DNA of 64,000 nt from Anaerolineales bacterium (lineage in GTDB: Bacteria > Chloroflexota > Anaerolineae > Anaerolineales > Villigracilaceae), in assembly GCA_043788255.1 (NCBI GenBank), contig JAYVUA010000080.1:7488-71487 (forward strand), written 5' to 3'. The position numbers and the translations under genes are program-made. The notes beneath the pieces were generated by a model, which ran no database searches, was not told the DNA's origin, and saw nothing but the letters and a program-made list of their open reading frames with translations. The stretch's first letter is position 1; each line of letters opens with the position of its first letter. This document shows, in pieces, positions 9,258-28,452 of this stretch.

Positions 9258-9273
9258 TGCGCCAAATGGCTTA
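9258..9273. promoter_or_regulatory. 7-2-7 operator copy (TGCGCCAAATGGCTTA)
   Basis: Matches consensus TARGCARAATNGCYTA; 80 bp upstream of start 9178. Confidence 0.6.
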
Positions 9274-9343
9274 TGATGAACGTCATAGCGAGCGCTTTCT
9301 AGAAGATTACAGTGCTCACCTATATTTGAAATATGAAGAATAT

Positions 9344-9643
9344 TTACTTTGCCACAACTTCTGCGCGGTATTCATGACGGCCATCGTTTCCCGATCCGAC
9401 TACAGCATTTACAAGCGCTTCAGCAGAGACCTTTCTGCCATTATAGAAAACTTCAGCCATCCCCATATTCAGGGATATTTCCGCGTGAAAAACTCCCTCC
9501 AGCAAAAGCAAGCCATTCCGCACGCGCGTGGCACAGTTCTGGCAGCCCATTCCCGAAACAGCTAAAAGGGCGCTGTCGGCATTACGGATCACACTGTCCA
9601 GCGCAGTTTTATTGATGGGTTCAACGTAGCATTTTTCGTCCAT
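9344..9643 (-). CDS. Heavy-metal-associated (HMA) domain copper chaperone, CopZ-like
   Basis: VSGMGCQNC motif in HMA fold. Confidence 0.88.
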   Translation of the reverse strand: MDEKCYVEPINKTALDSVIRNADSALLAVSGMGCQNCATRVRNGLLLLEGVFHAEISLNMGMAEVFYNGRKVSAEALVNAVVGSGNDGRHEYRAEVVAK

Positions 9644-9664
9644 GATATCAACTCCTTATCAGTT

Positions 9665-9868
9665 TCAGTTTTGCTGGCAAATTAATAAATGTTTTGTTTT
9701 CTTTACCTTCTCCCCAAACTCCGGCTTTGCAAAGGATTTTGGTGCGCGCTCAAATTGCGCCTGACATTGGGGACAACAAAGAAAGTAGTTGATGCCCTCG
9801 TGTTCTATGGTGATGTGTGCCTTTCCACGATTGATGCGTTTGCCGCATACTGGATCTTTGAATGACAT
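9665..9868 (-). CDS. YHS-domain protein
   Basis: DPVCG...YFLCCPQCQAQF; RBS aggag before ATG 9868. Confidence 0.85.
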   Translation of the reverse strand: MSFKDPVCGKRINRGKAHITIEHEGINYFLCCPQCQAQFERAPKSFAKPEFGEKVKKTKHLLICQQN

Positions 9869-9950
9869 ATCGGAACTCCTTGTTTTTGATTGACGTGCAG
9901 AGCGCATCTGAACATCTTCTTGATTTTAGATTAACGTTCAGGATTTCTTA

Positions 9951-9966
9951 AGCGCAGAATTGCCCG
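9951..9966. promoter_or_regulatory. 7-2-7 operator copy (AGCGCAGAATTGCCCG)
   Basis: Core GCAGAATTGCC; 83 bp upstream of start 9868. Confidence 0.55.
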
Positions 9967-10064
9967 ACTCGTACATAAGCATTTTTGCTTATGCCATTCT
10001 TGATAAAAATACTCCTGACCGCATTGACGGTCAGGAGAGAGAATCAGCATTTTATTGCCCTACA

Positions 10065-11654
10065 TTAATTTTCGATTTTGTAATTTCTCATCATACCTGC
10101 ATCTTCATGTTCGAGATTGTGACAGTGATAAAGAAATGTCCCGGCATAATTCTCAAAGCGGACAAGTACCTGAACCTTTTCTCCAGGCATGACCAGCACG
10201 GTATCCTTCCAGCCATCATCCACAAAACCAGCACTTAATTCCTGATACATCGACTCGTTACCCAGTGCAAGCTCGCGTCCGAGCACCTGAAATTGCACAC
10301 CGTGAATATGCATCGGATGCGGCATTTGCATATTCATCATACCCATTCCCATGCCGCCTCCGCCACCTTCGAGATTGGCAAATTCCCAAATCTCCAAATC
10401 GCCAAGCTGCACGATCTCATCACAGGCAACCGAATCCATTTCGAACACGCGACCGTTGATGGTATGAGTCATGCCCTGCATCGCCAGTGTAAACGAGCGT
10501 GGGTTATTTCGATTAACTGCATCTTCCGCACGATGACGCGCAATGATTGAAAGCTGAGCAGGGAGCGGGAGAACATCCGCGCCTTTCTCTCCGACTTTCA
10601 AACTCAGGATGTCGAATGGCGCGCCATTGGGCAGGCTGGAACCTCCGCCCATCATTCCTCCACCATTATCAAACCCTGAAAACGGTAAACTGACCAATCG
10701 CATTTCACTACCTGTTCGCTCACTAAAATCCACCCAGAGTTCCACCCGTTCACTAGGCGCGAGCGTAATATAGTCACGGGTTCCTGGCGCTTCCAGCAAA
10801 CCGCCGTCGGTGGCGATCACGGTTAGAGGTGTGCCATCCTGCCATGCGAGTTTATAGATGCGTGAGTTCGAGCCATTTAACAATCGCAAGCGGTACGCGC
10901 TGGCTTTAACATCCAGCGCCGCGTTTGGCGCACCGTTGACCAGAATCGTATCGCCCAGAAAACCAATCATCGAATCCAACATGCCGTTCGCCAGATAAAC
11001 CATCTCGTTTTGCGAGTCGAACGTACGGTCCTGTATTACCAGCGGCAGGTCATACTCACCAGACGGCAATCCCAGCGCGGCTTCCTCGTCGTCGCTGACG
11101 ATGAACAAACCCGCCAATCCGTAATACACCTGCGGGGCAGTCAACTGATGCGGATGCGGATGAAACCAATACATGCCTGCGCGGTTAATCACCCGAAAAT
11201 CATATTCAAAACTTTCGCCGGGCGCAATCGCATAACGCGGATGCCCGTCCATCTCTTCTGGAATTAACAGTCCGTGCCAGTGGATGATGGTGGGATCGGG
11301 AAGTTCGTTCTTAAGCCGAACCTGGACTCGTTGACCTTTCTTTACCCGAAAAATGGGGCCAAGATAGGAGTCGCTCAACGTCTGGATTGATTCTGCGCTT
11401 CCCTCCCGCACTGCTGACTGATACCACCAAACGGGCGTTTCTGCCCCTGAGAAAATAGGCAGCGTGGTTCGTCCAGCAGTCAAGTCAACGGCAAGGGAAA
11501 CAGGTATAGACGCGAGTGGCGTCAGGATAACGGGAGCAGTTGTCGGGTTCGCGAAGCGTGAAGCGGGCGGAATGAGTCCACAGGCACTGAGAGTCAATGT
11601 CCCTGCGCCCATTCCCATCAGTTTGATAAAGTCCCTGCGAGTGAGTCTGTTAAT
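10065..11654 (-). CDS. Three-domain multicopper oxidase (CueO-like), Tat-exported; probable ATT start
   Basis: HWHG, WFHPH, HPMHIHG, HCHNLEHEDAGMM motifs; the twin-Arg signal LTRRDFIKL lies upstream of the first ATG (11618), in frame from ATT at 11654, 9 nt after AAAGGAG. Confidence 0.9.
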   Translation of the reverse strand: MNRLTRRDFIKLMGMGAGTLTLSACGLIPPASRFANPTTAPVILTPLASIPVSLAVDLTAGRTTLPIFSGAETPVWWYQSAVREGSAESIQTLSDSYLGPIFRVKKGQRVQVRLKNELPDPTIIHWHGLLIPEEMDGHPRYAIAPGESFEYDFRVINRAGMYWFHPHPHQLTAPQVYYGLAGLFIVSDDEEAALGLPSGEYDLPLVIQDRTFDSQNEMVYLANGMLDSMIGFLGDTILVNGAPNAALDVKASAYRLRLLNGSNSRIYKLAWQDGTPLTVIATDGGLLEAPGTRDYITLAPSERVELWVDFSERTGSEMRLVSLPFSGFDNGGGMMGGGSSLPNGAPFDILSLKVGEKGADVLPLPAQLSIIARHRAEDAVNRNNPRSFTLAMQGMTHTINGRVFEMDSVACDEIVQLGDLEIWEFANLEGGGGGMGMGMMNMQMPHPMHIHGVQFQVLGRELALGNESMYQELSAGFVDDGWKDTVLVMPGEKVQVLVRFENYAGTFLYHCHNLEHEDAGMMRNYKIEN

Positions 11655-11687
11655 GGTGAAGTTCTCCTTTTATTTTGCAATGCTTCC

Positions 11688-11731
11688 AGTATAGACTCCC
11701 CGTGTAAAGGAATAATGAAGATAAGACAAAG
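11688..11731 (-). promoter_or_regulatory. Promoter with 11-bp-period direct repeats (OmpR/PhoB-type box) and -10 TATACT
   Basis: Plus-strand GTAAAG 11704, ATGAAG 11715, ACAAAG 11726; -10 (minus TATACT 11693-11688) 10 nt away. Confidence 0.6.
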
Positions 11732-11749
11732 ATTGCTTGAATGTCACCA

Positions 11750-11971
11750 CTACTCCCCATCTAGAGGATGTTCCACATCGCCTGCCAGAAATGGATCAGG
11801 GTCCTGTTCGAAAACACGCAGGCAGGCGCGAGTGCAAAAATAAAGGCGCTCGCCATGATAGATGGCGCTGGGATAGTTTTCGGGGTCTTTGATGACGCCT
11901 CCACAAACCGTTTTATATTCAGGCGATTGAGGTGTTGCAGTGACAGGTTGAGGCAAAATGTATTTCTCCAA
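11750..11971 (-). CDS. YHS-domain protein
   Basis: VCGG...YHGERLYFCTRACLRVFEQDP. Confidence 0.75.
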   Translation of the reverse strand: MEKYILPQPVTATPQSPEYKTVCGGVIKDPENYPSAIYHGERLYFCTRACLRVFEQDPDPFLAGDVEHPLDGE

Positions 11972-11993
11972 ATTGGGTTCAATAGATAATACG

Positions 11994-12020
11994 AAGGCGC
12001 AGGATAAAATCCTGCGCCTT
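11994..12020. terminator. Intrinsic terminator-like hairpin
   Basis: aaggcgcaggat-aaa-atcctgcgcctt. Confidence 0.75.
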
Positions 12021-12045
12021 ATAATTTCAAAGAAGCAGTAAGAGT

Positions 12046-13425
12046 CTACATTCTCATTGCCATCGGAAGCGTGAACAGAATCACATTCATAATAGTGAGG
12101 ACGACCATCAAGACTGCATAAGGGACAAAGGTTCCCCAGACCTTACCGTCGGCGCTGTTGTTTTTCGCGATGCGATAGGCAACATAAAGCGACCCGATGA
12201 AACCAAGCGCCAGCAGCCCAAATTGCAGGAATTGAATGGTAGCCATATCGAGAATGGCGAGGGAAGCTCCGTGAAATTCCATGCCGAATAATCCCATTGC
12301 CGTATAGTAAATGGATTTGCCTTCCGCCAAAAGATGGAACAGGTTGTGAGCAATATGACCTGCCATGTCCAACGCGATGATGGCATACCCGAAGCGGGCG
12401 AAATTTTCCACGAGAGAGACTTTGTTGAACTTACCTGCAACCCAGGAAGTAAAGCCAAGTAAAGCCACTGGCAAAATAATGGCGGTTGCAAAAGTAATAC
12501 TGAACGTGACTGCGTAATTGGTTGTGCCTGTAACCTGCTCCAGCCAATTTAGCACCTTGCCCCACACTTCGAGCATGGTCACATTCTGTACGAACACAAT
12601 ACCCATGATGACCGCTGAAAGGAAAGCTTCTTCAACTTTGGGCTTGCGGATGAACCATAATTCCTTTGTGGGCGGGCGCATCGTCAATTGAATGGAGTTA
12701 TTGGGGCAGCCTTTGATACATTCCGCGCAGAGCACGCAGTTGGCGCTGGAAGTCATGGTCTTGGGAAATTCGTACAAGGGACAGGGCATGGAATTATCTG
12801 TGCCTTTATAACATGCGGCCACTGTGCAGGTTGCACAGATATCAGGAGTTCCACGGAGGCTCAACATACCGTTTCGCGCGTAGTTACCGGATAATCCGCC
12901 GAGGAAACAAACGTAGCGGCAGAAGGTACGGCGTTCATAAAAAGCGCCAGAAACGATCACGCCCGTGGTTAATGTCAACATCAAGATACCAGAACCGAGC
13001 GGATTTTCCACCACGCCCCAGACATGGTCACTCCAGGTGATGAAGATGAAGAGTGCATCAATGATCCAGATGCCGTATTTTTTCAGGAACTTCGGCACAG
13101 GACGTTTGTTACCGACAAAGTTTTGAACAAGATCATTGATCTTGGCAAATGGACAAATGGCACACCAGAAACGTCCCAAAAACAGGAAGATGATCGGGAT
13201 CAACGGCCACCACAACACCCAGGTCAGGGCGGTACCGAAGTTGTCATGCGCGGCTTCGGGTCCAAGAATCAGCTCGAACATGATCAGCATAAAAATGATC
13301 AGAGTGGGCCATTGAATAATGCCGGGATACCAGCGGCTGCGCAGGAAATTATTAATCAACTTGTTGTCGAGCAGATTTCTGCCATTCAGCCAGGATGGGT
13401 TTGGAGTGTTGATCGGTGTTGTCAT
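12046..13425 (-). CDS. Second membrane polyferredoxin (4Fe-4S binding)
   Basis: GRFWCAICPF, RTFCRYVCFLGG, CATC, NCVLCAECIKGCPNN; paralog of 6942-8273. Confidence 0.88.
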   Translation of the reverse strand: MTTPINTPNPSWLNGRNLLDNKLINNFLRSRWYPGIIQWPTLIIFMLIMFELILGPEAAHDNFGTALTWVLWWPLIPIIFLFLGRFWCAICPFAKINDLVQNFVGNKRPVPKFLKKYGIWIIDALFIFITWSDHVWGVVENPLGSGILMLTLTTGVIVSGAFYERRTFCRYVCFLGGLSGNYARNGMLSLRGTPDICATCTVAACYKGTDNSMPCPLYEFPKTMTSSANCVLCAECIKGCPNNSIQLTMRPPTKELWFIRKPKVEEAFLSAVIMGIVFVQNVTMLEVWGKVLNWLEQVTGTTNYAVTFSITFATAIILPVALLGFTSWVAGKFNKVSLVENFARFGYAIIALDMAGHIAHNLFHLLAEGKSIYYTAMGLFGMEFHGASLAILDMATIQFLQFGLLALGFIGSLYVAYRIAKNNSADGKVWGTFVPYAVLMVVLTIMNVILFTLPMAMRM

Positions 13426-13450
13426 GGGAATATTCCTCTAAAGAATAAAA

Positions 13451-14125
13451 TTACTTGCGAATAACAAGAGACTTGCGTTTGAGAAAAGCCGCTGCCGCAA
13501 TCACAGTGCCATTAATGCCAAAGAAGCCAGCTAGTACCGCGTAATTCAAGCCAAGCGCGCGGGCAATCTCAATCGGGAAGTCAACTTCTGTAGTTTCGCC
13601 ATCGATCGTGAAATGCACATTGAACATCCACTCGCCGGATGCATCAAAGTGCATTTCACCAGCATATTCGCCAGATTCCATTGTGGGTTCAAGCATGATC
13701 GTCAGAGCTTCTTCAGTATGTTCATCTGCCGCAGGTTCGTTGGGTTTCATCACACCTGTGGATGGGACTTCCGTCGCCATGTCCATTCCACTTGAATTAC
13801 TGGTCATCACACCGACGGATGGAGCCTCAGTTGCCATTTCCATTTCGCTGTTTTCATCATGGGCAGACATTCCCTCAACTGGCATGGCAGAGACTTCCAC
13901 TTCCGCGTTTGAAACGGGCATGCCCATCGAATCCACGATCTGGATGTGGAATTCGTTTTCACCAACCATCGCAGGTTCCTTAAAGACAAGTTCAACCTGG
14001 TACCCGTTTGCTGTTGCAACATATCCATTTTCAGCACCACCATCAGCCAAGGCCATTGTGGGCGTTACCAACAAAATAGCGGTGACCAATAACACCGCCA
14101 TATTTCTGCGCATCATTCTGTTCAT
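13451..14125 (-). CDS. FixH/YtkA-like exported protein with Met/acidic insert
   Basis: Signal peptide; VGENEFHIQI...PVSNAEV...GEYAGEMHFDASGEWMFNV pattern; C-terminal TM. Confidence 0.7.
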   Translation of the reverse strand: MNRMMRRNMAVLLVTAILLVTPTMALADGGAENGYVATANGYQVELVFKEPAMVGENEFHIQIVDSMGMPVSNAEVEVSAMPVEGMSAHDENSEMEMATEAPSVGVMTSNSSGMDMATEVPSTGVMKPNEPAADEHTEEALTIMLEPTMESGEYAGEMHFDASGEWMFNVHFTIDGETTEVDFPIEIARALGLNYAVLAGFFGINGTVIAAAAFLKRKSLVIRK

Positions 14126-14220
14126 GAGCAATTTGCCTCCTGTAATCAAAGTTAATCGAAGTTGACAAATCTTATCGTGTCAATGCAAATCTCCAGAGCG
14201 CGATATGGCGTGATTTATCG

Positions 14221-14236
14221 TAGGCTAAATGACTTG
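14221..14236. promoter_or_regulatory. Weak 7-2-7 operator copy (TAGGCTAAATGACTTG)
   Basis: Partial match to the island consensus upstream of 14125. Confidence 0.4.
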
Positions 14237-14294
14237 TGACAAACATCAGGCATCGATTATGACAATCGTTTTCCCTGCCAAATAAATTAAAAAA

Positions 14295-14327
14295 GTGGTT
14301 GCTCAGGACATTACCTTGAGCAACCAC
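14295..14327. terminator. Intrinsic terminator of the copA operon
   Basis: gtggttgctca / tgagcaaccac stem followed by a T-run on the minus strand. Confidence 0.75.
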
Positions 14328-14351
14328 CTACCTGCCTTCAAACATTCTTTG

Positions 14352-14558
14352 TTAATGGTCGTGCTTTTCTGAATGTCCGAATATACTCCATGCTCCGATC
14401 AAAAGCACAGATACTGCCACGCCGATCAACCCAGCTAGGAAAACCAGTATTGAAGTGAAGTCGAGCCAGTATTTCCCGAAGGACCAGAACAATACGACGC
14501 CGATAATGAAAGCGCAGAGATAGGATATAGTGGAAAAATTGGTTCTGCCGTTTTTCAT
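14352..14558 (-). CDS. Small two-TM membrane protein
   Basis: 68 aa, two hydrophobic helices, His-containing C-terminus, operonic. Confidence 0.6.
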   Translation of the reverse strand: MKNGRTNFSTISYLCAFIIGVVLFWSFGKYWLDFTSILVFLAGLIGVAVSVLLIGAWSIFGHSEKHDH

Positions 14559-14574
14559 TTTCTTTCTTTTCTTT

Positions 14575-14952: not shown

Positions 14953-14953
14953 G

Positions 14954-15586: not shown

Positions 15587-15587
15587 A

Positions 15588-15899: not shown

Positions 15900-15904
15900 A
15901 TTAA

Positions 15905-18541
15905 TTACCTGACACTGAATTTTGGTTTGAACCCACGCAAGCGATTCGCATTGCCCACAACCGTCACAGACGAGAACGCCATCGCCGCGCCCGCGATCAT
16001 TGGACTAAGCAATACGCCGAAGAATGGAAAGAGCAATCCCATTGCAACGGGGAGCCCCAGCACGTTATAGAAAAACGCACCAACAAGGTTTTGATAAATA
16101 TTGGACATCGTAGCGCGACTGACTTCAATCGCAGTGACCACGCCTTTAAGGCTGCCTTTGATGAGCGTGATGTCTGAGGCTTCGATGGCAACATCTGTGC
16201 CTGTGCCGATGGCAAGACCGACATCCGCTTGCGCCAGTGCGGGCGCATCGTTGATGCCATCGCCAACCATTGCGACTTTTTTGCCTTCGGCTTGAAGCAG
16301 GTGAATATTATTTGCTTTATCTTCGGGCAGCACTTCAGCCAACACGCGCGTCACACCAACTTTACGCGCAATCGCTTCAGCGGTGCGGCGGTTATCACCC
16401 GTGATCATCACCACCTCAATGCCCAAGGCTTGCAGGGCTTTGATGGCTTCGGCGGAATCTTCCTTGACTGTATCCGCCACCGCGATGATGCCTGCGGCCT
16501 TGCCATCGAGTGCAATGAACATCGGAGTCTTCCCATCGTCGGCAAGTGATTTTGATTTTTCTTCGAGCGAACCAAGCATGATATTTTCGCGGTTCATCAA
16601 TTTGAGATTCCCGATCAATATTTTTTTATCTTCTACTTTTGCTGAAACGCCATGGCCTGGAATGGCTTCAAAGTCTTTGACTTCCATCAATTCCAATTTA
16701 CGAGCCTGCGCACCATCGACAATCGCCTGCGCCAACGGATGTTCACTGACTTTTTCAATGGACGAAGCTACTTTCAACAACTCATCATCTTTCAAGATCG
16801 GCTGGTCGCTGATGATGATGTCAGTCAATTCAGGTTTACCTTTTGTGATCGTACCTGTCTTATCCAACACTACGATCTGAATGGCACGCGCGGTTTGTAA
16901 TGCTTCACCCGAGCGAATGAGAATTCCATGTTCCGCGCCCTTGCCGATGCCGACCATCAGACTCATGGGTGTGGCAAGCCCTAATGCACACGGACAGGCG
17001 ATAATGAGCACGGTCACGCTTGTGACGAGTGCATAAACGAGTTGCGGTTGCGGTCCAATCACGAACCAGATGACGAAGGTCCACACGGCCAGGATCATTA
17101 CAATAGGAACAAAATAACCTGAAACCGTGTCAGCCAGTCTTGCGATTGGCGCTTTCGAATTCTGTGCATCCTGCACCATCTTTACGATTTGTGCCAGTGC
17201 GGTATCTTTTCCAACTTTTGTAGCACGAAACTTGAATGCGCCAGTTTTATTGATCGTCGCGCCAATGACTTCATCGCCCATCTTTTTGGACGCTGGCAGT
17301 GACTCACCTGTCAGCATGGACTCATCCACAGCAGAGCTGCCTTCGACTATCACTCCATCCACAGGAACTTTCTCGCCAGGGCGGACCTGAATCACATCGC
17401 CGACTAAAACTTCCTCAACAGGCAAGTCCATCTCTTTACCATCGCGAATTACGCGTGCGGTCTTCGCCTGTAGACCCAATAATTTTTTGATTGCTGAACT
17501 GGATTGTCCCTTGGCACGTAATTCAAGCGCTTGTCCCAACACAACCAATGCAATCACGACTGCAACAACATCATAAAAAGGTTCTGATGTTCCTTCGGGA
17601 AAAACGGATGGCAACAGAATCGCAAAGGTTGAATATAACCATGCCGCCCCCGTGCCGAGCGTGATTAATGTATTCATGTTTGCCGAGCGATGTTTGAATG
17701 CTGCCCATGCGCCAGTGAAAAAATCACTGCCTGACCAGAACATGACGGGCAATGTCAGAAGCGCGGTCGCGCCCCATAATAATCTCAACGAGTCCATGTT
17801 CCAATCACGCAGGATTGGCATAACCTGATAATAAGCAGTTATCATCACAAACACAGAGACCGCAGCTGCAAACCAAAACTTGTTCATCAGCTTTCGATAT
17901 TCACGCGCGTGCGCTTCTTCCTGCTTATCCACGGGCGCATCGCTTGTTGAAGCGCGCGGTTTATAGCCCCAGGTTTCAATCGCTGCATTCAACTGCGAGA
18001 GAGTTGTGTTTTGTGGAAGATAGTCCACCGTCGCTTCCTGAGTAGCGATGTTGACGTTCGCATTCAAAACGCCCGCTGTGGATTTCAACTCATCTTCAAT
18101 GAATTTTACACATGAGGCGCAGCGCAGATTCTCAATGCCGATGCGTGTCTGTGCACCATCCACGGTATAGCCAGCGGATCGAATGGCGCCTGCCAGCCCG
18201 ACGAGATTGATTTTTTGCGGATCGTAATCGAGTTGCACCAAACCTGCCCCTGCATTCACGACCACCCGATCCACTCCATTCAGGGATAGCAAACCTGCTT
18301 CAAGCTTTGCTGCAGGTCTGACCATAGGCAGGTCTGCAACGGGTAGTTCGATGCGGGAAAGAGTCCGCTCAGGGTTGAAGCCTGTTGTTGCTGATGTCAT
18401 CACATAACGGTGCGGATCCTTGTCGAATTGATCCGCACAGGATTGAGAGCAAAAATAAAACATCTGCCCCATGTGCTCGCGTTTAGCAAAAGCGCTTTGG
18501 GGTTCGATTTCCATTCCACAAACTGGGTCATGTACTTTCAT
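15905..18541 (-). CDS. copA: Cu(I)-translocating P1B-1 ATPase with N-terminal YHS and HMA domains
   Basis: CPC in TM6, [21 protein letters not shown] and MAFSS motifs; DPVCGM YHS; LRCASC HMA. Confidence 0.95.
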
Positions 18542-18622
18542 GATTCACCTACTTTATAAGAGATGCTTAAAGTGTATATCCATTTGACGCAGTGTATGAG
18601 CGGCTTTCTGCCTAATTTGATA

Positions 18623-18638
18623 TAAGCAAAATGGCCTA
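18623..18638. promoter_or_regulatory. 7-2-7 operator copy (TAAGCAAAATGGCCTA); weaker copy at 18599-18614
   Basis: 82 bp upstream of the copA start. Confidence 0.7.
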
Positions 18639-18678
18639 TCTTTCGGATAGGCCATTTGAGTAAGCACGATAGGATTTA

Positions 18679-19298: not shown

Positions 19299-19333
19299 GT
19301 TCTCATCAGGATTTTTGCATGGCGAAGGAAGCA

Positions 19334-19362
19334 GAATGGCCTGTCTTTTAGACAGGCCATTC
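19334..19362. terminator. Hairpin after YHS gene; overlaps a 7-2-7-like site at 19328-19343
   Basis: gaatggcctgtct-ttt-agacaggccattc. Confidence 0.65.
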
Positions 19363-19379: not shown

Positions 19380-19556
19380 CTATTGATGAGTGTGGTCGTC
19401 AGTCTTGTTGAGATACTTTTCAGGCTCTTTATCGAAAGCCTTTTTGCAGCCGAGCGAACAGAAGTGATAAGTCTGCCCGTTGTATTCGGATTTGCCAGCG
19501 GCGGTTGCGGGATCAATATCCATGCCGCAGACGGGGTCATGTACGGTAGTTGTCAT
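19380..19556 (-). CDS. YHS-domain protein
   Basis: DPVCGMDID...YHFCSLGCKKAFDKEPEKY; His-rich tail. Confidence 0.9.
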   Translation of the reverse strand: MTTTVHDPVCGMDIDPATAAGKSEYNGQTYHFCSLGCKKAFDKEPEKYLNKTDDHTHQ

Positions 19557-19633
19557 TTGTTGTCTCCTTATGTTTGATTGGATTATCATCTTAAAAGACA
19601 TCTTCAATGAGAGCCATATTACCCAAAGCTTTA

Positions 19634-19649
19634 CAGGCGATTCTGCCTA
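19634..19649. promoter_or_regulatory. 7-2-7 operator copy (minus strand TAGGCAGAATCGCCTG)
   Basis: 78 bp upstream of start 19556. Confidence 0.7.
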
Positions 19650-20830: not shown

Positions 20831-20912
20831 AAGCCTGCCTGTATAAAATGGGATGGATATATCATAAGCAAAACCCCGCCCCTGCATGAGCGCAGGATGG
20901 CGGGGCTATGGA

Positions 20913-20928
20913 TAAGCAAAATGGCTTA
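20913..20928. promoter_or_regulatory. 7-2-7 operator copy (TAAGCAAAATGGCTTA)
   Basis: 83 bp upstream of the ccdA start. Confidence 0.7.
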
Positions 20929-20942: not shown

Positions 20943-22637
20943 TCACAATCGGACCGTTAGCCTGCTGCCCTTTCCCAAAGTGGATTCCATCTCGAGCCGC
21001 GCACCGATCAGGTCGGCGCGTTCATGCACGCCCAACAAACCGAAGTGTCCGCTCGGGGCAAGTTCAGTGGGACTTTTCGGCATGATGAAGCCATTGCCGT
21101 TGTCACTGACTTCCATCTTGATTTCCGAATCTTCAAAGGTAATTTTCAAATCGGCATGGCTGGCCTTGGAATGTTTGACCACATTACTGACTGCTTCCTG
21201 CGCGATTCGATAGAGCGATAATTCCTCTTCGCGTGAGAGGCGGCGTTCCTCTCCTCTTTTTTGAAAATCCACAGTCAATTGATTATTATGAGCAGTTTCG
21301 CGGGTTAACATATCAAGTGCGGTAACGAGCCCCAGATCTTCGAGATAGATGGGACGCAAGGCTCGTATCAGGCGGCGTAGGTTTTCAACAGTTTGTTCCG
21401 CAAGACCCTCAAGTTCCTGAAGTGAGCGTTTTCCGTTCTGGTCTTTGACCAACTTTTCGGCCAATTGCACGCGTTGTTTCAATGCGATCACCGATTGAAT
21501 GGTTTCATCATGCAATTCACGCGCCAGCCGCATGCGCTCATCTTCCTGCGCGGAAGTGATCGCGCCGATGTAATCATGCAATCCCTCCTGGGAAGCCTGT
21601 ACCTTGCGCGACATCTCAGTCAATTCCATTTGCAGATGCTGCACTTCCAAAATCCCGCCGACGGATTCTTTGATGGCTTCAAAGTCACCCCATGCCAGCG
21701 CGGCGGCCTTAGATTCAAGTTTTTGCAATGGCTGTACAATTTGCTTTGCACCAAACCAGATTGCGATCAGAGCAAGGATGAAAGCAGGAACCATGACAAG
21801 GGGGGCCATCTGGGTTAACTGCAACGATGGACTGATCACCATTTCCCATTCTTCCTCGGTGATCAACGCCCAGCCTGTCAATACGATGGGGCTATATGCA
21901 ACGACGTGTTCTGTCTTATCCTTCTTGACATAAAGCACGCCGCTATTTCCTTGCATTGCCTCTGTAACACCTGGGTGGTTGGGTTCCAAAGTTTCCTGTG
22001 CAAGTGCGCCGCTCACGAAAAGCAATCGACGCGATTTGTCGAGCAGGTAGATGGTTACATGGCTGCCTGTTGGATAAGTGGTAGAGAGGGTTTTAATGGC
22101 AAGTGTTTCAGGAGAAAACGCGCCCGCCACAATCACATTGCGGGAGGCGGAGTATGCTGAAATGATAACGAAAAGTTGGTTTGAGCTGGGGTCAAGGATT
22201 GGATCGGAGAAAATAGGTTCACGGTCCGAAGGAGAAGCGAGAGAAAGACTTTGTGCGTTTTGAGAAACCCATCCCCAAAAACTGTCATTGCCTGTATTGG
22301 CGAGCAAGCGTCCATCTGAATCGAGAAAGGCTATTTCACCATTGAAATCATTTGCAAGATCATTCGTAGTTGCAAAGATTTCTTCAAAAGTTAGCTCCTC
22401 AGAAGATAGAACAGCCATACTGGTAATTGTAGCCACGCGATGGTGTAATTCAGATTCGAGCGCGGCGGCAGAAGATTGAACCGCGCGCTCATCACGCTCG
22501 CCAACGAGGGCACGCATATCCTGCTGGTGCATGTTGACACCGCCAAAAGCGATTACCAACAGTAATACAGTAAGTGGCAGGATTGTGACTGCGAAAAGTT
22601 GTGTGAGGCCGCGCCAGCCAGGCAGGAGACGTTTCAT
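20943..22637 (-). CDS. Sensor histidine kinase (Cache-like sensor, HAMP, HisKA_3)
   Basis: ERMRLARELHDE H-box; LYRIAQEAVSNVVKHS; DNGNGF; GHFGL. Confidence 0.93.
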   Translation of the reverse strand: MKRLLPGWRGLTQLFAVTILPLTVLLLVIAFGGVNMHQQDMRALVGERDERAVQSSAAALESELHHRVATITSMAVLSSEELTFEEIFATTNDLANDFNGEIAFLDSDGRLLANTGNDSFWGWVSQNAQSLSLASPSDREPIFSDPILDPSSNQLFVIISAYSASRNVIVAGAFSPETLAIKTLSTTYPTGSHVTIYLLDKSRRLLFVSGALAQETLEPNHPGVTEAMQGNSGVLYVKKDKTEHVVAYSPIVLTGWALITEEEWEMVISPSLQLTQMAPLVMVPAFILALIAIWFGAKQIVQPLQKLESKAAALAWGDFEAIKESVGGILEVQHLQMELTEMSRKVQASQEGLHDYIGAITSAQEDERMRLARELHDETIQSVIALKQRVQLAEKLVKDQNGKRSLQELEGLAEQTVENLRRLIRALRPIYLEDLGLVTALDMLTRETAHNNQLTVDFQKRGEERRLSREEELSLYRIAQEAVSNVVKHSKASHADLKITFEDSEIKMEVSDNGNGFIMPKSPTELAPSGHFGLLGVHERADLIGARLEMESTLGKGSRLTVRL

Positions 22638-23326
22638 TCTTCTTCGATGATATTGCCCGAACCCTGTGAGATCAATCCCAGAGAGACGCCACGCATGACA
22701 GCTTCAGTTCGGCTGGTGGCTTGCAGTTTGGCGAAGATATGCGCGAGATGCCCCTGCACGGTACGGTCGCTGATGCTAAGCTGTACACCAATGGCTTTAT
22801 TGGTGAATCCTTTTGCAGCAAGTCGCAACACATCCAGTTCACGATCCGTCAGCGGTTCGACAATTTTCTTCTCTGTTCCTTTGAATATGTTGGACATCAA
22901 TTTGCGCGTGATGGCAGGGTCAAGTGCAGACTTGCCCTCATTTACATCGCGCACAGCTTGAATAAGATCGTCGGTTTGTGCTGTCTTGAGCACATAGCCA
23001 TTCGCGCCTGCCTGCAGGACTGCCATCACATATGGATCGTCATCGTAGGCCGTTAGGATTAACACGCCCACTTCTGGCAAATGTGCGCGCACCCAGCGAG
23101 TCACTTCGATACCACTGGCTTTGGGCATTTGGATATCCAGGACCGCCACATCAGGTTTGTGCTTCTGAATGAGGGCTTGGGCTTCTTCGCCATCTCCCGC
23201 CTCAGCTATGACCTGAAGATCGCTCGCGCTTTCAAGCAATTGGCGCACCCCTGCGCGGACGATGTGATGATCGTCAGCCAGAAGAATGCGGATTTTGGTT
23301 TTTGATTTGCTCAATGACTTTGCCAT
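22634..23326 (-). CDS. NarL/LuxR-family response regulator
   Basis: ILLADDH, VLDIQMP, LTDRELDVL...TNKAIG...TVQGH HTH. Confidence 0.93.
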   Translation of the reverse strand: MAKSLSKSKTKIRILLADDHHIVRAGVRQLLESASDLQVIAEAGDGEEAQALIQKHKPDVAVLDIQMPKASGIEVTRWVRAHLPEVGVLILTAYDDDPYVMAVLQAGANGYVLKTAQTDDLIQAVRDVNEGKSALDPAITRKLMSNIFKGTEKKIVEPLTDRELDVLRLAAKGFTNKAIGVQLSISDRTVQGHLAHIFAKLQATSRTEAVMRGVSLGLISQGSGNIIEEE

Positions 23327-24047
23327 AACTAAGTGGTTCCAATTCTTGATTGAGTGCTTGAGTCTGAAAAATATAAGGGAAGGCGAGCCAGACGATACCA
23401 AGACCAGCCAAAAGTCCAGTGATGAAGCGCATGAGAGAATTGAACGAACCGAGCGCATCGCCTGCGTAGAATGTCGCAGAGAATGAATTATTCGTCAGTA
23501 TCACAAGCCATTGATTTGTATCACGAAAGCCCTGTCCAATGCCAGCGAAATCGCTCAGCATATGCGTACCACCATCCATTATAAGAGGAAGCAGAAGCAA
23601 AATGAATCCGAACCAGGATAAGGTTTTGATCCTGCGTCGAAATGGAAACCAAAGTGCTGCAAACATCCAGACACTGGTGTAAAACGAGATCATGCGATCC
23701 GACCAGGCGACCTTCCAGCCCATGCTTTCATTACCAATAAATTGACGGAGAATCATGGGGTTAATAGTATCCTGCCAGACGGCTTGAACTTCACTCAACG
23801 AATACATGGTTTTTTCGCCAAAGAGAAAGAATGACCGTTCTGGAAGTTGATGACAAAAAAATGAGTAAATGAAGTATATGGCCCTTCCTGCTCCGATCCA
23901 ACCGATGTATATGAAGAAGGGTGCAAGAAAAGGCGCGAATACCCACAGTCCATAAACGATCAGAAAAGTCTCAAACCAATGGATGCCAATCCATTGAAAG
24001 ATGGACTGTTTGGGTTTTGGAAGAGCCGGTGTTGTGATGGTAGACAT
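23274..24047 (-). CDS. DUF2085-like membrane protein
   Basis: YSFFCHQLPERSF; MDGGTH; RFITGLLAG. Confidence 0.8.
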   Translation of the reverse strand: MSTITTPALPKPKQSIFQWIGIHWFETFLIVYGLWVFAPFLAPFFIYIGWIGAGRAIYFIYSFFCHQLPERSFFLFGEKTMYSLSEVQAVWQDTINPMILRQFIGNESMGWKVAWSDRMISFYTSVWMFAALWFPFRRRIKTLSWFGFILLLLPLIMDGGTHMLSDFAGIGQGFRDTNQWLVILTNNSFSATFYAGDALGSFNSLMRFITGLLAGLGIVWLAFPYIFQTQALNQELEPLSYGKVIEQIKNQNPHSSG

Positions 24048-24054
24048 TCTTTCC

Positions 24055-24633
24055 TTATGGTGCGTCAGGTTCAGGTGCTTTATTGAGATTGGAGCGGTAG
24101 AAGACCTTGGCCTGTTCTGCATCAAAAGTTTCAAAGCGCTGCAATCGTCCCCAGGATGTCATGACAAGTGGGGTATCAAGCGAAGGCCAGGGATAGGCAA
24201 TCAACTTTACGCCACCCAGATCATCGATTGTGGTTTTAATTTGTTCCTTTAAGTTCGTGCAATCAGATTCGTCCAGCAAGTCGCAGTTGTACCAGAAGAT
24301 CACATATCCATGTTCCAAATTATGGACGAGATAACCAGCTGGAAACTGATAATTGTTGTTGTCAAAAAAACCTGCCCTTGCCTCCTCCGCGTAATGTGGA
24401 CCTGAGGTTGGCGGGTCGGAATTGTATTCACCAGGATCGCTATCGACTGGGATATGTGGGTCGCTCACCATGATCGGGACAGACTCGCCTGCTGCTGGAC
24501 GGGCGCTCTGCGAAATGACAAGGGCGATGATCACAAGTATAGCCACTCCGATCCCACCCCAGACAAGACTACTTTTAAGTTTTTGTTTGCGCTGGCGGTC
24601 ATGCAATTGTTGACGTCTGTTTTTTGAATTCAT
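24055..24633 (-). CDS. DUF3105-like membrane-anchored protein
   Basis: YNSDPPTSGPHY; VHNLEHGYVIFWYNC. Confidence 0.85.
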   Translation of the reverse strand: MNSKNRRQQLHDRQRKQKLKSSLVWGGIGVAILVIIALVISQSARPAAGESVPIMVSDPHIPVDSDPGEYNSDPPTSGPHYAEEARAGFFDNNNYQFPAGYLVHNLEHGYVIFWYNCDLLDESDCTNLKEQIKTTIDDLGGVKLIAYPWPSLDTPLVMTSWGRLQRFETFDAEQAKVFYRSNLNKAPEPDAP

Positions 24634-24654
24634 TTAATTTCCTGAATTTAATGG

Positions 24655-24690
24655 TAAACAGGCATCAAAATGATTTCTGATGCCTGTTTA
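24655..24690. terminator. Terminator-like hairpin
   Basis: taaacaggcatca / tgatgcctgttta. Confidence 0.7.
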
Positions 24691-24698
24691 GATTTCAA

Positions 24699-25091
24699 TT
24701 ATTGAATTGGAAGATTGATGTCTTCTTTATAATCAAGTTCCCCTTTCCGCACGTAGATGGTTAACACCCAATCGCCAGAATCACTAAAATTGGCTTTGAT
24801 GGAATATTTTCCTCCACCTTGTTCGGTTGCCTGGCCGTTCATACCCATTCCTGCCATCGCAGGATGTTCAGCAGCCACATCCACTTTTGCACCTTCGATC
24901 AATGCACCACTGGCGTCGGTAATGGTGAACATTAATTCCACATCGCCTTTCACGGCAGGTGATGGATTGGTTTCCAGTTTGATGTTCACCTGCCCGGAGG
25001 AAGACGTGTCAGTCGGCGTTGCCGCATTGCCACAAGCCGCCAGTAAAACAGATAATGCCACGAGTAGATTGATTAACAAAAACTTACGCAT
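24699..25091 (-). CDS. FixH/YtkA-like lipoprotein
   Basis: Lipobox LAAC; HPAMAGMGM; GGGKYSIKANFSDSGDW. Confidence 0.8.
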   Translation of the reverse strand: MRKFLLINLLVALSVLLAACGNAATPTDTSSSGQVNIKLETNPSPAVKGDVELMFTITDASGALIEGAKVDVAAEHPAMAGMGMNGQATEQGGGKYSIKANFSDSGDWVLTIYVRKGELDYKEDINLPIQ

Positions 25092-25113
25092 TTCTTCTCC
25101 TTTAATAAAATGA

Positions 25114-26196
25114 TTATTCAACGACATTGATCATCAACATCAAGCCACCCGGCTCAACGTTGTCGTTTGTGGTGTGATGCAGGATGTGACAGTGCAGCAT
25201 CCATTGACCCGTTTCCGTGGCGACGAATTCGATGTCATAACGCTCGCCTGGCGCGACACTAATTGTGTCCTTCGTTAACTGTGCGCCTTCAGGGACGGGA
25301 TGTCCATCGGTGGCAACGATTTTGAAGGGCATCCCATGCAGGTGCATTGGATGAATAAATTGTCCGATTGCGATTAGTCGCAGGCGAACCAGATCACCTT
25401 TCTTGACCGTGATTGTCTCCGTTGCGGGGAATGACTTGCCGTTGATCGTAAAGTAATTCGGCTCCATCCCACCCATTGGCATGGCGGCGTATGTCTGCCC
25501 ATCCGTCATCCGTACTTCGGAAATCATTAGCACTTTATCCACAACAGGAGTGTTGGCTTCTGGTTCCTTCGGATCAATGATGAATGGAGCATATAATCCT
25601 GCGCCTACCTGTACATCACCTTCAAAATGCGAGTGATACATGAAGGTGCCCGCAGGTTTGGCGATGAATTCATATGTAAAAGATTCACCAGGCTGGATGG
25701 GATCCTGGGTAACTCCAGGTACGCCGTCCATTGCATTGGGAACTTCGACTCCATGCCAGTGAATGGTTGTCGGATCAGGCAGTTCGTTCTTAACGATGAT
25801 CCTGACCTGATCTCCCTCTGTGACACGGATCATTGGCCCGGGCACGGTTCCGTTGTATGTATATGCTGTGACCGTGACGCCATCCAAGATCGGCCATTGC
25901 ACTGCTTTTGTGGTCAGCTCAAATACTTTAACGCCATCTTCCTCGCGATAAGCAAGCGGTTGTCCGCCGGTTGTTTCAGTGGCAGGCTGAATGTTCGGGG
26001 CTGTGATCGGCTCCATCATGTGCGCGGCTCCGGGGTTGTTCGCCGTCATACTGCCTGGGGTTGGGATCCCGTCCGTCATATTGGAGTTATCGTTATTCAT
26101 TGGCATCGTGCTATCGGGCGTTGCAGCAGGCGCACAAGCCGACAAAGTCAAAGCCAGAGTCATTAACGAAAAAATCAGTATCTTCTTTATTTTCAT
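25114..26196 (-). CDS. Two-domain multicopper oxidase lipoprotein (T1 site in domain 2, type B-like)
   Basis: LSAC lipobox; HWHG, MYHSH, HPMHLHG, HCHILHH. Confidence 0.9.
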   Translation of the reverse strand: MKIKKILIFSLMTLALTLSACAPAATPDSTMPMNNDNSNMTDGIPTPGSMTANNPGAAHMMEPITAPNIQPATETTGGQPLAYREEDGVKVFELTTKAVQWPILDGVTVTAYTYNGTVPGPMIRVTEGDQVRIIVKNELPDPTTIHWHGVEVPNAMDGVPGVTQDPIQPGESFTYEFIAKPAGTFMYHSHFEGDVQVGAGLYAPFIIDPKEPEANTPVVDKVLMISEVRMTDGQTYAAMPMGGMEPNYFTINGKSFPATETITVKKGDLVRLRLIAIGQFIHPMHLHGMPFKIVATDGHPVPEGAQLTKDTISVAPGERYDIEFVATETGQWMLHCHILHHTTNDNVEPGGLMLMINVVE

Positions 26197-26277
26197 GTTT
26201 CCTCTTAAAGTTGGGATAGCCGCTAACTATAAGGAATTCACCATTTCTTAACCAGAGCAATTTGACGCAGTTGAAGA

Positions 26278-26293
26278 TAGGCCAAATTGCCTA
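26278..26293. promoter_or_regulatory. 7-2-7 operator copy (TAGGCCAAATTGCCTA)
   Basis: 82 bp upstream of start 26196. Confidence 0.72.
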
Positions 26294-26677
26294 TTTAGTC
26301 TTTGAAATCGAAACAGGATCGTTGGTTTCAAGTGCCTGCTGAATGGAATGGATTAATTTCTCATTTGCCCGTTGTTGCGAATCGTTTGCAATGGATACCC
26401 AGGTCTGTCCATCGTTGCCATGCAGAATCAGGGTTGCAGGTTCTGCAACTTTCCCATAAACCAATAGAACCACCATCTGGCAGTCACACTCCTCTGTCCC
26501 GTGATTCGGACAGGGACAATCGTGCAACGCCAGCCGCGCTGTGTGCAAATCAAAAGTCTGCACTACTCGGAGACTTGCCTGCGATAACTGTTGTTTTGTC
26601 CATTGCAAAGCTTCGTCACAGGGATGGTTGATTGATAAGAACGGAGAATTATTCATATGCGCCTCTGATGTCTCCAT
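26291..26677 (-). CDS. Hypothetical protein with CPCPNHGTEECDCQM Cys/His cluster (start 26677 or 26656)
   Basis: ORF track; Cys/His-rich motif. Confidence 0.7.
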   Translation of the reverse strand: METSEAHMNNSPFLSINHPCDEALQWTKQQLSQASLRVVQTFDLHTARLALHDCPCPNHGTEECDCQMVVLLVYGKVAEPATLILHGNDGQTWVSIANDSQQRANEKLIHSIQQALETNDPVSISKTK

Positions 26678-26727
26678 TTTACAGAATCTCTCTATAAGTC
26701 CGAAGAGCCGCGTGGCGTATTCTTTCA

Positions 26728-26743
26728 TAGGCAGAATCGCCTA
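26728..26743. promoter_or_regulatory. 7-2-7 operator copy (TAGGCAGAATCGCCTA)
   Basis: Best match to consensus; upstream of the 26291 gene. Confidence 0.72.
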
Positions 26744-26745
26744 TG

Positions 26746-26786
26746 AAAATCTTCCCCTGTTTGTTGAAGAAACAGGGGAAGATTTT
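26746..26786. terminator. Intrinsic terminator
   Basis: aaaatcttcccctgttt / aaacaggggaagatttt. Confidence 0.8.
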
Positions 26787-26810
26787 TCGAACCATGTAAG
26801 ATGAATATGT

Positions 26811-27938
26811 TCAGGGTGTCATTCCTGGCATATCCATCTGTCCACCTTCTGGTATTTCAAGTTGTATTTCAGGCGAAGAAGCTGGGAGGGCGGGCAGGCT
26901 TGAGAAACTAATTCCGTTCGGGGCCACCCCGCTGGGAATCTTCGCAATAACAGTTTTTTGCTCAATGTCGATCACAGACACTGTGTTTTCATAGATATTG
27001 GTGATGTACGCAAAACGACTTGATGGATCAATTACCACGCCGTGCGCGCCCTTTCCTGTTTCAATCGTAGCGACAATAGTGAAAGTGGCAACATCCACAA
27101 TTGAAACTGTGGTGCTGGGACTTTCCTGGGTTCCCTGGTTTGCGACAAGGATATACTTATTGTCAGGGGTAACGAATACTTGGATCGGTCCACCTTCCAC
27201 CTCCACTTTGCCAACCAATTCGCGCGTGGCAACATCCACTTTGCCCAGCGCATTCTCGCCATTGAGAGAGAAATAAATGAACATTCCATCAGGTGAAAAA
27301 CCCACTTGCACAGGGCGCTCACCGACTTCAATATCTGCGACCTTTACGTTCTGTTCAGTGTCGATCACGCTCAGGGTGGTAGATTTGGCATTAGCGGCAT
27401 AGACCCATTTTCCATCGGGGCTTACTCTCAAACCATGCGGGTATTCGCCAACTGAGATTGTAGCCATGACGGTCATTGTCTCCACATCAATTACGGTTAT
27501 CGTATTGTCTTCGCCGTTGGTGACGTACCCCTTTTTACCATCGGGCGTCAGGACGATATGAGCAGGCATCATCCCTGTGGGAACAACGCCATGAACTTCA
27601 TAAGTCAAAGCGTCTATCATAATAGCGAGCGAATCATGCCCACTAACCGCCCAGACCGTTTTTCCATCAGGGGCAACCTGCAGGTTATGTGCGCCCTCGA
27701 TTCCAGTCAGCGTCGTAAGTACCTGATTCGTGGCTGCGTCGATCACTGTGATACTGTTGCCTTCTTCATCGGCCACCCACACCGTTCCCTCCACACCTGC
27801 CGTTGGCTGGCTTTCTGTCGGTTGAATTGCTGTGGGCTGGCTCACGGTTGACTGGCTTGCATTGCCACTACATGCGCTCAAAACGATTGCGGCTCCTAAT
27901 AATAGGATTGCAACTCCCCAAATCATTGGTTGTTTCAT
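26811..27938 (-). CDS. YVTN/YncE-type beta-propeller lipoprotein
   Basis: LSAC lipobox; repeated VAPDG, TPDGKKGYVTN, SPDGKWVYAAN blades; His and Met residues in blades. Confidence 0.88.
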   Translation of the reverse strand: MKQPMIWGVAILLLGAAIVLSACSGNASQSTVSQPTAIQPTESQPTAGVEGTVWVADEEGNSITVIDAATNQVLTTLTGIEGAHNLQVAPDGKTVWAVSGHDSLAIMIDALTYEVHGVVPTGMMPAHIVLTPDGKKGYVTNGEDNTITVIDVETMTVMATISVGEYPHGLRVSPDGKWVYAANAKSTTLSVIDTEQNVKVADIEVGERPVQVGFSPDGMFIYFSLNGENALGKVDVATRELVGKVEVEGGPIQVFVTPDNKYILVANQGTQESPSTTVSIVDVATFTIVATIETGKGAHGVVIDPSSRFAYITNIYENTVSVIDIEQKTVIAKIPSGVAPNGISFSSLPALPASSPEIQLEIPEGGQMDMPGMTP

Positions 27939-28013
27939 TGTTTTTCAACTCCTTTAAGATTTGATTGACCGAATAACGATTAATCTTATACAGCATCCAA
28001 AAGGAGTTGAACA

Positions 28014-28029
28014 TACGCAGAATTGCCTA
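28014..28029. promoter_or_regulatory. 7-2-7 operator copy (TACGCAGAATTGCCTA)
   Basis: 76 bp upstream of start 27938. Confidence 0.7.
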
Positions 28030-28157
28030 ATACAATGCCATTTGTCCAAATTCACTCGTTGATTGGCGGAATTATCTGGTCACTAGAATCAAATCAATCG
28101 AGTATGCACGTACTATAAATCCAGAAAAGTAGCGGAAATATCGTCATTCTCAAATTG

Positions 28158-28358
28158 TTATATCTCGCCCACCTTAATATATTTTTCTGGCATACGTTCA
28201 AACAAATGTTTGCATACCCCGGAGCAAAAATAATATGTCTTACCTTTATACAGAATCTTGAATGGTGGTTTCTGCGGATCAACTTTCATTTCACATACGG
28301 GGTCAATTTCAAATGACAGGCCTGCCGCATTAAATCTTTGCATATTGAAACCGTTCAT
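28158..28358 (-). CDS. YHS-domain protein
   Basis: IDPVCEMKVD...YYFCSGVCKHLF. Confidence 0.75.
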   Translation of the reverse strand: MNGFNMQRFNAAGLSFEIDPVCEMKVDPQKPPFKILYKGKTYYFCSGVCKHLFERMPEKYIKVGEI

Positions 28359-28436
28359 GGTTTCCCTCCGCCATATATAGGCAACTTTACTGAAATTTAT
28401 TCGTACCATCCTAACAGGTTCCTTTGCTATATTGTA

Positions 28437-28452
28437 TAAGCAGAATTGCCTA
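28437..28452. promoter_or_regulatory. 7-2-7 operator copy (TAAGCAGAATTGCCTA) in divergent intergenic region
   Basis: 79 bp upstream of 28358 and 70 bp upstream of 28522. Confidence 0.72.

Follow-up and report, generated by a model that had tools for sequence, protein, structure and literature searches.

The DNA analysed here (the window) is a 64,000-nucleotide (nt) stretch from an uncultured Anaerolineales bacterium (Chloroflexota), assembled from sediment metagenomes. Between about 5.9 and 28.4 kb it carries a copper island, a copper-handling set of genes that all lie on the minus strand. Its metal genes encode a P1B ATPase with YHS and HMA domains, an HMA chaperone, small YHS proteins, two multicopper oxidases and cupredoxins, and its other products include PCYCGC, YtkA, DUF3105, DUF2085, DsbD-like, rhodanese, thioredoxin-like, Fer4_5 and beta-propeller proteins. 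Among these genes sit a NarL/FixJ-family response regulator and a HisKA_3 sensor histidine kinase. The left flank holds a fragment of a TraG/TraD-like conjugative coupling protein (5-907) and an FTR1 iron permease (4627-5448), and the right flank a housekeeping heme-biosynthesis operon. An earlier note on this DNA had proposed that a 16-bp inverted repeat, recurring at a fixed distance upstream of the island genes, is the operator of this regulator. We find that the repeat is probably the distal, high-affinity element of a promoter with two rigidly placed boxes, which depends on an activator, the NarL-family protein.

The earlier observation is real and stronger than first described: the motif is enriched in the island. 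The degenerate 16-mer of the earlier note has 4 exact matches and 11 matches at two or fewer mismatches, compared with 0 and 0.62 in shuffles of the window. A palindromic weight matrix built on nine window sites gave, at a threshold of at least 14 bits, nine matches in the 22.7-kb island (9976, 18623, 19328, 19634, 20913, 26278, 26728, 28014 and 28437) and one in the other 41.3 kb, at 33672 within the heme-biosynthesis coding region. The proposed 7-2-7 geometry also held: in a logo of 184 promoters from related loci, T0 A1 G2 G3 C4 A5 A6 mirrors T9 T10 G11 C12 C13 T14 A15 across a spacer at positions 7-8, a true inverted repeat of the half-site TAGGCAA. The full 18-bp palindrome reads A-TAGGCAA-TT-TTGCCTA-T, with variants A-TA(G/a)GC(a/c)A-TT-TTGC(C/t)TA-T and an invariant GGC/GCC core. 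NarL-family dimers bind inverted heptamers spaced by 2 bp.

Scanning 80 Anaerolineales loci that were fetched through the regulator (83-97% identical; 1.16 Mb) with the window-derived matrix returned 268 matches of at least 14 bits, compared with 5-8 in shuffles; dereplication left 247 sites, and the logo was drawn from 184 promoters. The palindrome (positions 0-15, the distal box) is followed, after 8 unconserved bp, by a degenerate proximal box at positions 24-39, YnCGYcAnnYkGCkCT (variants YnCG(C/t)cAnnYkGC(G/t)CT), whose best-conserved bases are G27 (0.98), A30 (0.85), G35 (0.83), C36 (0.97), C38 (0.99) and T39 (0.90). A 22-bp spacer of background composition then leads to a -10 hexamer at positions 62-67, TAnAAT (TA(t)AAT in the logo), and an A stands at +74 in 64% of promoters, all positions being counted from the palindrome start. 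The phasing is strict. TAnnnT falls precisely at +62 in 166 of the 247 sites, against about 4 at each other offset; a relaxed -10 at +61 to +63, in at least one orientation, accompanies 227 sites (92%, compared with 4% at random positions), and 168 (68%) have GCnCT in register as well, compared with 0.075% at random. The apparent exceptions are mostly promoters of YHS genes, with the -10 (C/G)ATAAT. Conserved boxes separated by spacers at background amount to a phylogenetic footprint, and this fixed architecture is conserved across species and across the gene families behind it.

The start-codon distances reported earlier (80, 83, 82, 78, 83, 82, 76 and 79 bp) are correct as measured, with a Shine-Dalgarno sequence at each start. 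In the related loci, similarly, the gap from motif to start codon is 70-89 nt in 157 of the 224 dereplicated sites with a detectable downstream start, again with a Shine-Dalgarno sequence before the start codon. The true phasing, however, is to the -10 hexamer at +62, which lies mostly 17-37 nt from the start codon and leaves leaders of roughly 11-30 nt. The near-constant distance to the start codon arises because the leaders are short and the element is phased to the -10. What had been taken for a single operator is thus a real motif, but only the distal of two boxes.

Transcription likely begins at the A at +74, which would put the box centres at -66.5 (distal) and -42.5 (proximal). The logo contains no -35 hexamer (positions 40-44 carry no information) and no extended -10 (position 60 is C in 61% of promoters, where G is needed), and full sigma-70-type promoters with both -35 and -10 are not enriched in the island (32 versus 26.5). 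Boxes so placed on a promoter with neither element point, by their position, to an activator. Two other readings of the conserved bases were rejected: a sigma-54 promoter by inspection, the GG and GC elements on the coding strand lying 9 bp apart and not 12, and GCGCT as the -35 of an alternative sigma factor, the 22-bp spacer to the -10 being beyond the range of the sigma-70 family. The proximal box is related to the palindrome but distinct. It shares G3, A6, G11 and C12 with it and differs in the outer 3' bases, and we rejected it as a second palindrome copy at a weight-matrix score of 5 bits or less at +24. A mild G-rich patch (G 0.46-0.59) occupies +51 to +54 of the unconserved spacer, about 8-11 bp 5' of the -10. 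Leaders, about 11-25 nt long in most promoters, gave no match to Rfam elements or tRNA.

The same elements separate island promoters from chance matches elsewhere. A scan of metagenome contigs with the 18-bp palindrome alone, blind to the regulator, returned 120 loci, of which 63 carry homologues of island genes and 57 do not. The latter have lower G+C, and 53 of them are without proximal box and -10, as expected of chance matches in a collection this large; the other four lie on contigs no longer than about 3.4 kb. The palindrome alone can arise by chance; it is the composite promoter that goes with the copper island. Within the window, the matrix match at 33672 and the weak copy listed earlier at 42872 have neither proximal box nor -10 and are chance matches.

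Two genes in the island make up the candidate signalling system:
22634..23326, minus strand: NarL/FixJ-family response regulator (REC and GerE helix-turn-helix), the proposed binder of the boxes.
20943..22637, minus strand: sensor histidine kinase with two transmembrane segments, a Cache-like periplasmic domain, HisKA_3 and HATPase_c.

Among the island open reading frames (ORFs) scanned, the response regulator is the only protein with a DNA-binding domain. No CueR, CsoR, CopY, MerR or OmpR-type regulator was found among them, in agreement with the earlier proposal of a NarL-type rather than a CueR/CsoR/CusR-type system. The receiver domain of the response regulator matches Pfam Response_reg (1.5e-30), the stretches with D18-D19, D63 (VLDIQMP), T92 and K114 being conserved in 76 orthologues, and its output domain matches GerE (2.9e-19); the closest solved relatives, matched over the full length at E values of 1e-41 to 1e-34, are VraR, DevR, ChrA and NarL. 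The same recognition helix, ISDRTVQGHLAH, occurs in all 76 distinct orthologues, which parallels the invariant GGC/GCC core of the motif. The kinase gene adjoins and overlaps that of the regulator and encodes HisKA_3 (1.5e-13) and HATPase_c (7.6e-11) domains together with a sub-threshold Cache match. Its periplasmic domain (residues 36-285) is the most variable part of the kinase and retains H37, M41, H65, H66, H221, M228 and H244 in orthologues 62-91% identical; these residues are plausible copper ligands. A 906-amino-acid (aa) MalT-like LuxR protein (55326-58046, minus strand; AAA_16, MalT TPR and GerE) lies 27 kb off, beside GH31 and ABC sugar-transport genes, and has no relation to the island.

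The promoter is linked to the operon of the regulator. In 67 of the 80 loci a composite promoter with the same orientation as the regulator gene is found 0.5-5.7 kb upstream, at no more than 3.5 kb in every case but one, and 12 of the 13 loci without such a promoter have less than 3 kb of sequence on that side. The intervening genes differ among loci, so that the promoter and the regulator-kinase pair form the constant unit, as expected under autoregulation.

The promoters and motif copies of the island are as follows:
9200..9273, minus strand: composite promoter of the PCYCGC - cupredoxin - Fer4_5 - cytochrome c/cupredoxin operon (start 9178); distal box TAAGCCATTTGGCGCA, proximal box TACGCTATCCTGCGCT, -10 TACTAT.
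9917..9991, minus strand: composite promoter of YHS67 - HMA chaperone (start 9868); distal box 9976-9991 (TAAGCAAAAATGCTTA), proximal box 9951-9966 (CGGGCAATTCTGCGCT), -10 TAAAAT at +63.
14163..14236, minus strand: composite promoter of the YtkA232 - Fer4_5 operon; weak distal box 14221 (CAAGTCATTTAGCCTA), proximal box CACGCCATATCGCGCT, -10 TAAGAT at +62.
18565..18638, minus strand: composite promoter of the copA operon; palindrome 18623-18638, proximal box 18599-18614 (TAGGCAGAAAGCCGCT), -10 TACACT.
19328..19343, minus strand: motif copy just 3' of the stop codon of the YHS 58-aa gene, part of a 9-bp hairpin; neither proximal box nor -10 downstream.
19576..19649, minus strand: composite promoter of the YHS 58-aa gene (19380-19556); palindrome 19634-19649, proximal box TGGGTAATATGGCTCT, -10 GATAAT.
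20855..20928, minus strand: composite promoter of the DsbD-like and rhodanese genes (start 20830); palindrome 20913-20928, proximal box CCCGCCATCCTGCGCT, -10 TATGAT.
26220..26293, minus strand: composite promoter of the regulator-kinase operon; palindrome 26278-26293, proximal box TGCGTCAAATTGCTCT, -10 TATAGT.
26670..26743, minus strand: composite promoter of the 121-aa Cys-rich gene (26291-26656); palindrome 26728-26743, proximal box TACGCCACGCGGCTCT, -10 TAAAAT at +62.
28014..28029, minus strand: palindrome before the beta-propeller gene (start 27938); extended -10 TGTATAAGAT at about +37 to +46, none at +62.
28437..28452, both strands: distal palindrome shared by two divergent promoters; on the minus strand it serves a YHS 66-aa gene (start 28358), with -10 TAAAGT at +63.
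28437, plus-strand side: promoter of a 157-aa membrane protein (28522-28995); proximal box ATGGCAATCTGGCGCA, -10 TATGAT at +62.

The promoter at 26278 would be autoregulatory: the operon behind it (26196 down to 20943) runs MCO360 - YtkA - DUF3105 - DUF2085 - response regulator - histidine kinase. The copA operon comprises CopA (15905-18541) followed by thioredoxin-like, methyltransferase and cupredoxin genes and a 68-aa ORF. The distal boxes at 9258 (11 bits) and 14221 (below 8 bits) are weak, yet both sites count as real promoters because each has a full proximal box and a -10 at +62. Of the copies listed in the earlier note, the one at 26728 is a genuine promoter, serving the 121-aa gene that starts at 26656, and the weak palindrome at 14221 belongs to the full promoter just described. 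The copy at 19328 is a motif (15 bits) with no promoter behind it, and those at 9951 and 18599 are proximal boxes. The 9951 site matches the palindrome only in its core GCAATTCTGC; the true distal site, 9976, had been missed and lies 108 bp from the start codon, behind a 48-nt leader. The earlier note had the HisKA_3/NarL pair activating most island operons, and the motif does stand upstream of nearly every unit. A 517-aa multicopper oxidase and a 73-aa YHS-like ORF (11750-11982) form the exception: their region (10065-12020) contains no palindrome or proximal box, the pair lies between strong terminators (12020-11994 and 10037-10012), and both genes seem to be outside direct control.

Several sites have features of their own. 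The beta-propeller layout (27938-28029) recurs in loci L006 (about 5309) and L012 (about 5317), where the palindrome is followed about 37 bp on by the extended -10 TGTATAAG; the palindrome then falls near -45, and no proximal box accompanies it. At 20913, the terminator hairpin of the kinase operon (20877-20905, minus strand; CCCCGCC...GGCGGGG, then TTTT) sits between the proximal box and the -10, which brings termination and regulated initiation together within about 75 bp. At 18639-18656 and 19344-19361, right after a stop codon, a 9-bp inverted copy of the left arm of the palindrome lies 9 nt upstream, in the layout AATGGCCTR-N9-YAGGCCATT; its role may be that of a terminator stem or of a third half-site. 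As a general third half-site or upstream hairpin it was rejected, since only 23 of the 184 promoters have such an arm.

Across the 80 loci the composite promoter heads at least ten gene families, including the 121-aa Cys-rich protein, multicopper oxidase, DsbD-like, CopA, PCYCGC, YtkA, YHS, cupredoxin lipoprotein and the 157-aa membrane protein. The 121-aa protein is the commonest first gene behind it (48 dereplicated cases) and a candidate for a new copper-binding protein. It is cytoplasmic and belongs to no Pfam family, has invariant H38, C47, C49, H52, C57, C59 and H79 with the signature HDCxCPNHGTxxCDCQ, and has more than 1,100 homologues, none with a functional name; the few labelled by organism are from Chloroflexi/Anaerolineales. 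Its structural model shows an alpha/beta fold, weakly DUF302-like (TM about 0.5), with a Cys/His loop and no helix-turn-helix. On the other side of the shared palindrome, 28522-29468 (plus strand) encodes the 157-aa membrane protein, which bears a CCIHH motif, and then a 158-aa ORF, neither with a Pfam family. About 20 dereplicated orthologues of the 157-aa protein occur in other loci in the same divergent arrangement.

From this anatomy we propose the following mechanism. The membrane kinase would sense periplasmic copper, or stress caused by copper, and phosphorylate the NarL-family regulator. One regulator dimer would occupy the 7-2-7 palindrome, centred near -66.5, and help a second dimer onto the degenerate proximal box, centred near -42.5 in place of a -35 hexamer. 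Both dimers would then recruit RNA polymerase with its housekeeping sigma factor to the TAnAAT -10, 62 bp from the palindrome start, and transcription would begin at the conserved A 7 nt past the -10 to give short leaders. With the regulator-kinase operon behind one such promoter, the circuit would show positive autoregulation. The most probable binder of the palindrome is the NarL-type regulator encoded in the island itself, and promoter anatomy supports activation by a NarL-family protein well. The earlier note had held that the HisKA_3/NarL pair activates most island operons: the box position suits an activator and the regulator operon carries a box, as that claim would have it, while the binder and the sign of regulation, like the start site and the signal, are what we infer from sequence.

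Several points weigh against this mechanism. Binding, expression and start sites are read from DNA, and metatranscriptome contigs from relatives about 88-90% similar are short and divergent, some running through the promoter, and are uninformative on starts. The proximal box scores poorly with the palindrome matrix and its 3' end reads GCkCT in place of GCCTA, so another factor may contact it; moreover, the 24-bp centre-to-centre spacing of the boxes does not correspond to an integral number of helical turns. Because the loci were collected by way of the regulator, part of the co-occurrence is built in. The recognition helix is invariant in all 76 orthologues and so offers no covariation with the motif. 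Copper, finally, is proposed as the signal from gene content alone.

One alternative survives best, although we think it unlikely: the regulon is real and its signal is silver, iron, oxygen or redox state, or general envelope or thiol stress. DsbD-like, thioredoxin-like, rhodanese, 4Fe-4S (Fer4_5) and cytochrome c proteins in the regulon would fit such a signal, as would the FTR1 permease at the island edge and the sub-threshold status of the sensor's Cache match. The core cargo, however, is classic copper handling (P1B ATPase, HMA chaperone, two multicopper oxidases, cupredoxins, PCYCGC, YtkA and YHS), and His and Met, both typical copper ligands, are retained in the periplasmic domain.

It is less probable still that a different transcription factor binds the boxes, be it the product of a gene located elsewhere in the genome or one of the uncharacterised island proteins, such as the 121-aa or the membrane zinc-ribbon protein, and that the two-component system controls something else. 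The several island ORFs without a Pfam family leave space for such a factor, as does the inferential assignment of binding to the regulator; the 121-aa gene is the one most often found behind the promoter, and the 3' end of the proximal box is unlike the palindrome. Individual candidates fare poorly, however. The 121-aa protein was rejected as a hidden regulator on its structural model, which has no DNA-binding fold; the zinc-ribbon protein is a membrane protein; and the MalT-like protein, found among sugar genes, was rejected because its recognition helix differs and none of the 80 loci has it. The regulator-kinase operon, by contrast, is preceded by the promoter in all loci but one with sufficient upstream flank, and NarL-family dimers are known to use sites of just this 7-2-7 inverted-repeat form.

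Repression by the same regulator, which would occupy -74 to -35 until the signal arrives and act wholly or mainly as a repressor, is a slim prospect. The proximal box overlaps the expected contact of sigma region 4, and some NarL-family regulators do repress. Yet a promoter with no -35 and no extended -10 should be weak unaided, the main box at -66.5 lies upstream of the polymerase footprint with no box over the -10 or the start, and strict 62-bp phasing to the -10 is a requirement of activator-polymerase contacts. A non-regulatory origin as a repeated or mobile sequence or a terminator hairpin can be dismissed, for although the motif is palindromic, forms part of a longer hairpin right after a stop codon at 18623 and 19328 and has a terminator inside the 20913 promoter, the architecture statistics already reject this reading. 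In 92% of 247 sites the motif is phased by exactly 62 bp to a -10 hexamer, comes with an oriented proximal box and stands at a set distance ahead of the start codon; the spacers between the boxes are unconserved, and few promoters (23 of 184) have the upstream hairpin arm.

We return to activation by the NarL-family regulator and to what it would mean. The coupling-protein fragment, the FTR1 gene at the edge and the presence in some assemblies among the 80 loci of two or three regulator/island copies suggest conjugative spread, with the copper island travelling on a conjugative element. The evidence tilts towards an undescribed class of copper-sensing two-component system, with an island that occurs in up to three copies per genome and adjoins a conjugative coupling-protein gene. 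This class would pair a Cache-like HisKA_3 kinase with a NarL-family regulator, be centred on or restricted to the Anaerolineales, run a horizontally spreading, self-contained island through a phased two-box cassette reused about ten times in each, and define new copper-homeostasis families. As it stands, the regulon is well supported by the sequence, the regulator plausible and the copper signal unproven.

If the proposal is true, the NarL family is new to copper control and brings a new operator, in a phylum with almost no experimental genetics; the regulon would also define new copper-homeostasis families, such as the 121-aa DUF302-like protein (Cys4/His loop) and the 157-aa membrane protein (CCIHH). 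The rigid promoter offers a computational marker with which to list copper-responsive genes, including families of no known function, in the abundant Anaerolineales of wastewater, groundwater and sediment, and the compact set of sensor, regulator and promoter could be transferred to a model host as a copper reporter. The result is an in silico regulon reconstruction of a familiar type of circuit, solid and useful, which changes no concept. In open-access text we found no NarL-family copper system, no Anaerolineae copper regulon and no such motif.

To our knowledge, the characterised bacterial copper regulators are CueR (MerR family), CsoR, CopY and the OmpR-type CusR/CopR. CueR, CsoR and CopY resemble the present system in controlling copA, copZ and multicopper oxidase genes by copper. 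They are, however, cytoplasmic one-component sensors whose operators lie in or over the core promoter, whereas the boxes here lie upstream of the -35 position; the CueR/MerR hallmarks, a MerR gene and an operator within a 19-20-bp -35/-10 spacer, were found neither among the island ORFs nor in the logo. CusRS and CopRS come closer in function, since their kinase faces the periplasm and, with its response regulator, activates genes for copper efflux and oxidases as well as the operon of the pair, often on transferable islands. They differ in their parts: a winged-helix Trans_reg_C regulator, a HisKA kinase and direct-repeat copper boxes, where the island has GerE, HisKA_3 and an inverted repeat. 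By its domains the system is a member of the NarL/FixJ family and not of the CusR/CopR family.

NarL/NarP of the E. coli nitrate regulon shares the combination of a REC and GerE regulator with a HisKA_3 kinase, the 16-bp 7-2-7 site with TA at its ends and the use of several sites per promoter. Between the NarL heptamer TACYYMT and TA(G/a)GC(a/c)A here, only the leading TA is common, so the resemblance is one of geometry and family and not of sequence; the base-contacting residues of the recognition helix presumably differ from those of NarL too. Further differences are the presumed signal (copper here, nitrate there), the sensor (Cache-like here, a NarX-type four-helix bundle there) and the layout, which is rigid here, whereas NarL sites vary in position and are often paired with FNR. 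A parallel in promoter layout is offered by class II LuxR promoters (lux box at -42.5), VraR/LiaR and DevR, where a palindromic box overlaps the -35 region in place of a -35 hexamer and a strong upstream site accompanies a weaker proximal one. Signals and regulons differ, and we know of no fixed 8-bp gap between 16-bp boxes, reused about tenfold per island, in any of these systems. Class II activator-dependent sigma-70 promoters in general combine a normal -10 with an activator site near -41.5 or -42.5 that stands in for a poor or absent -35. With the proximal box at 24-39, the -10 at 62-67, uninformative positions at 40-44 and a start placed from the -10 and the A at +74, promoter use in the copper island would resemble class II LuxR-type activation with an added upstream helper site.

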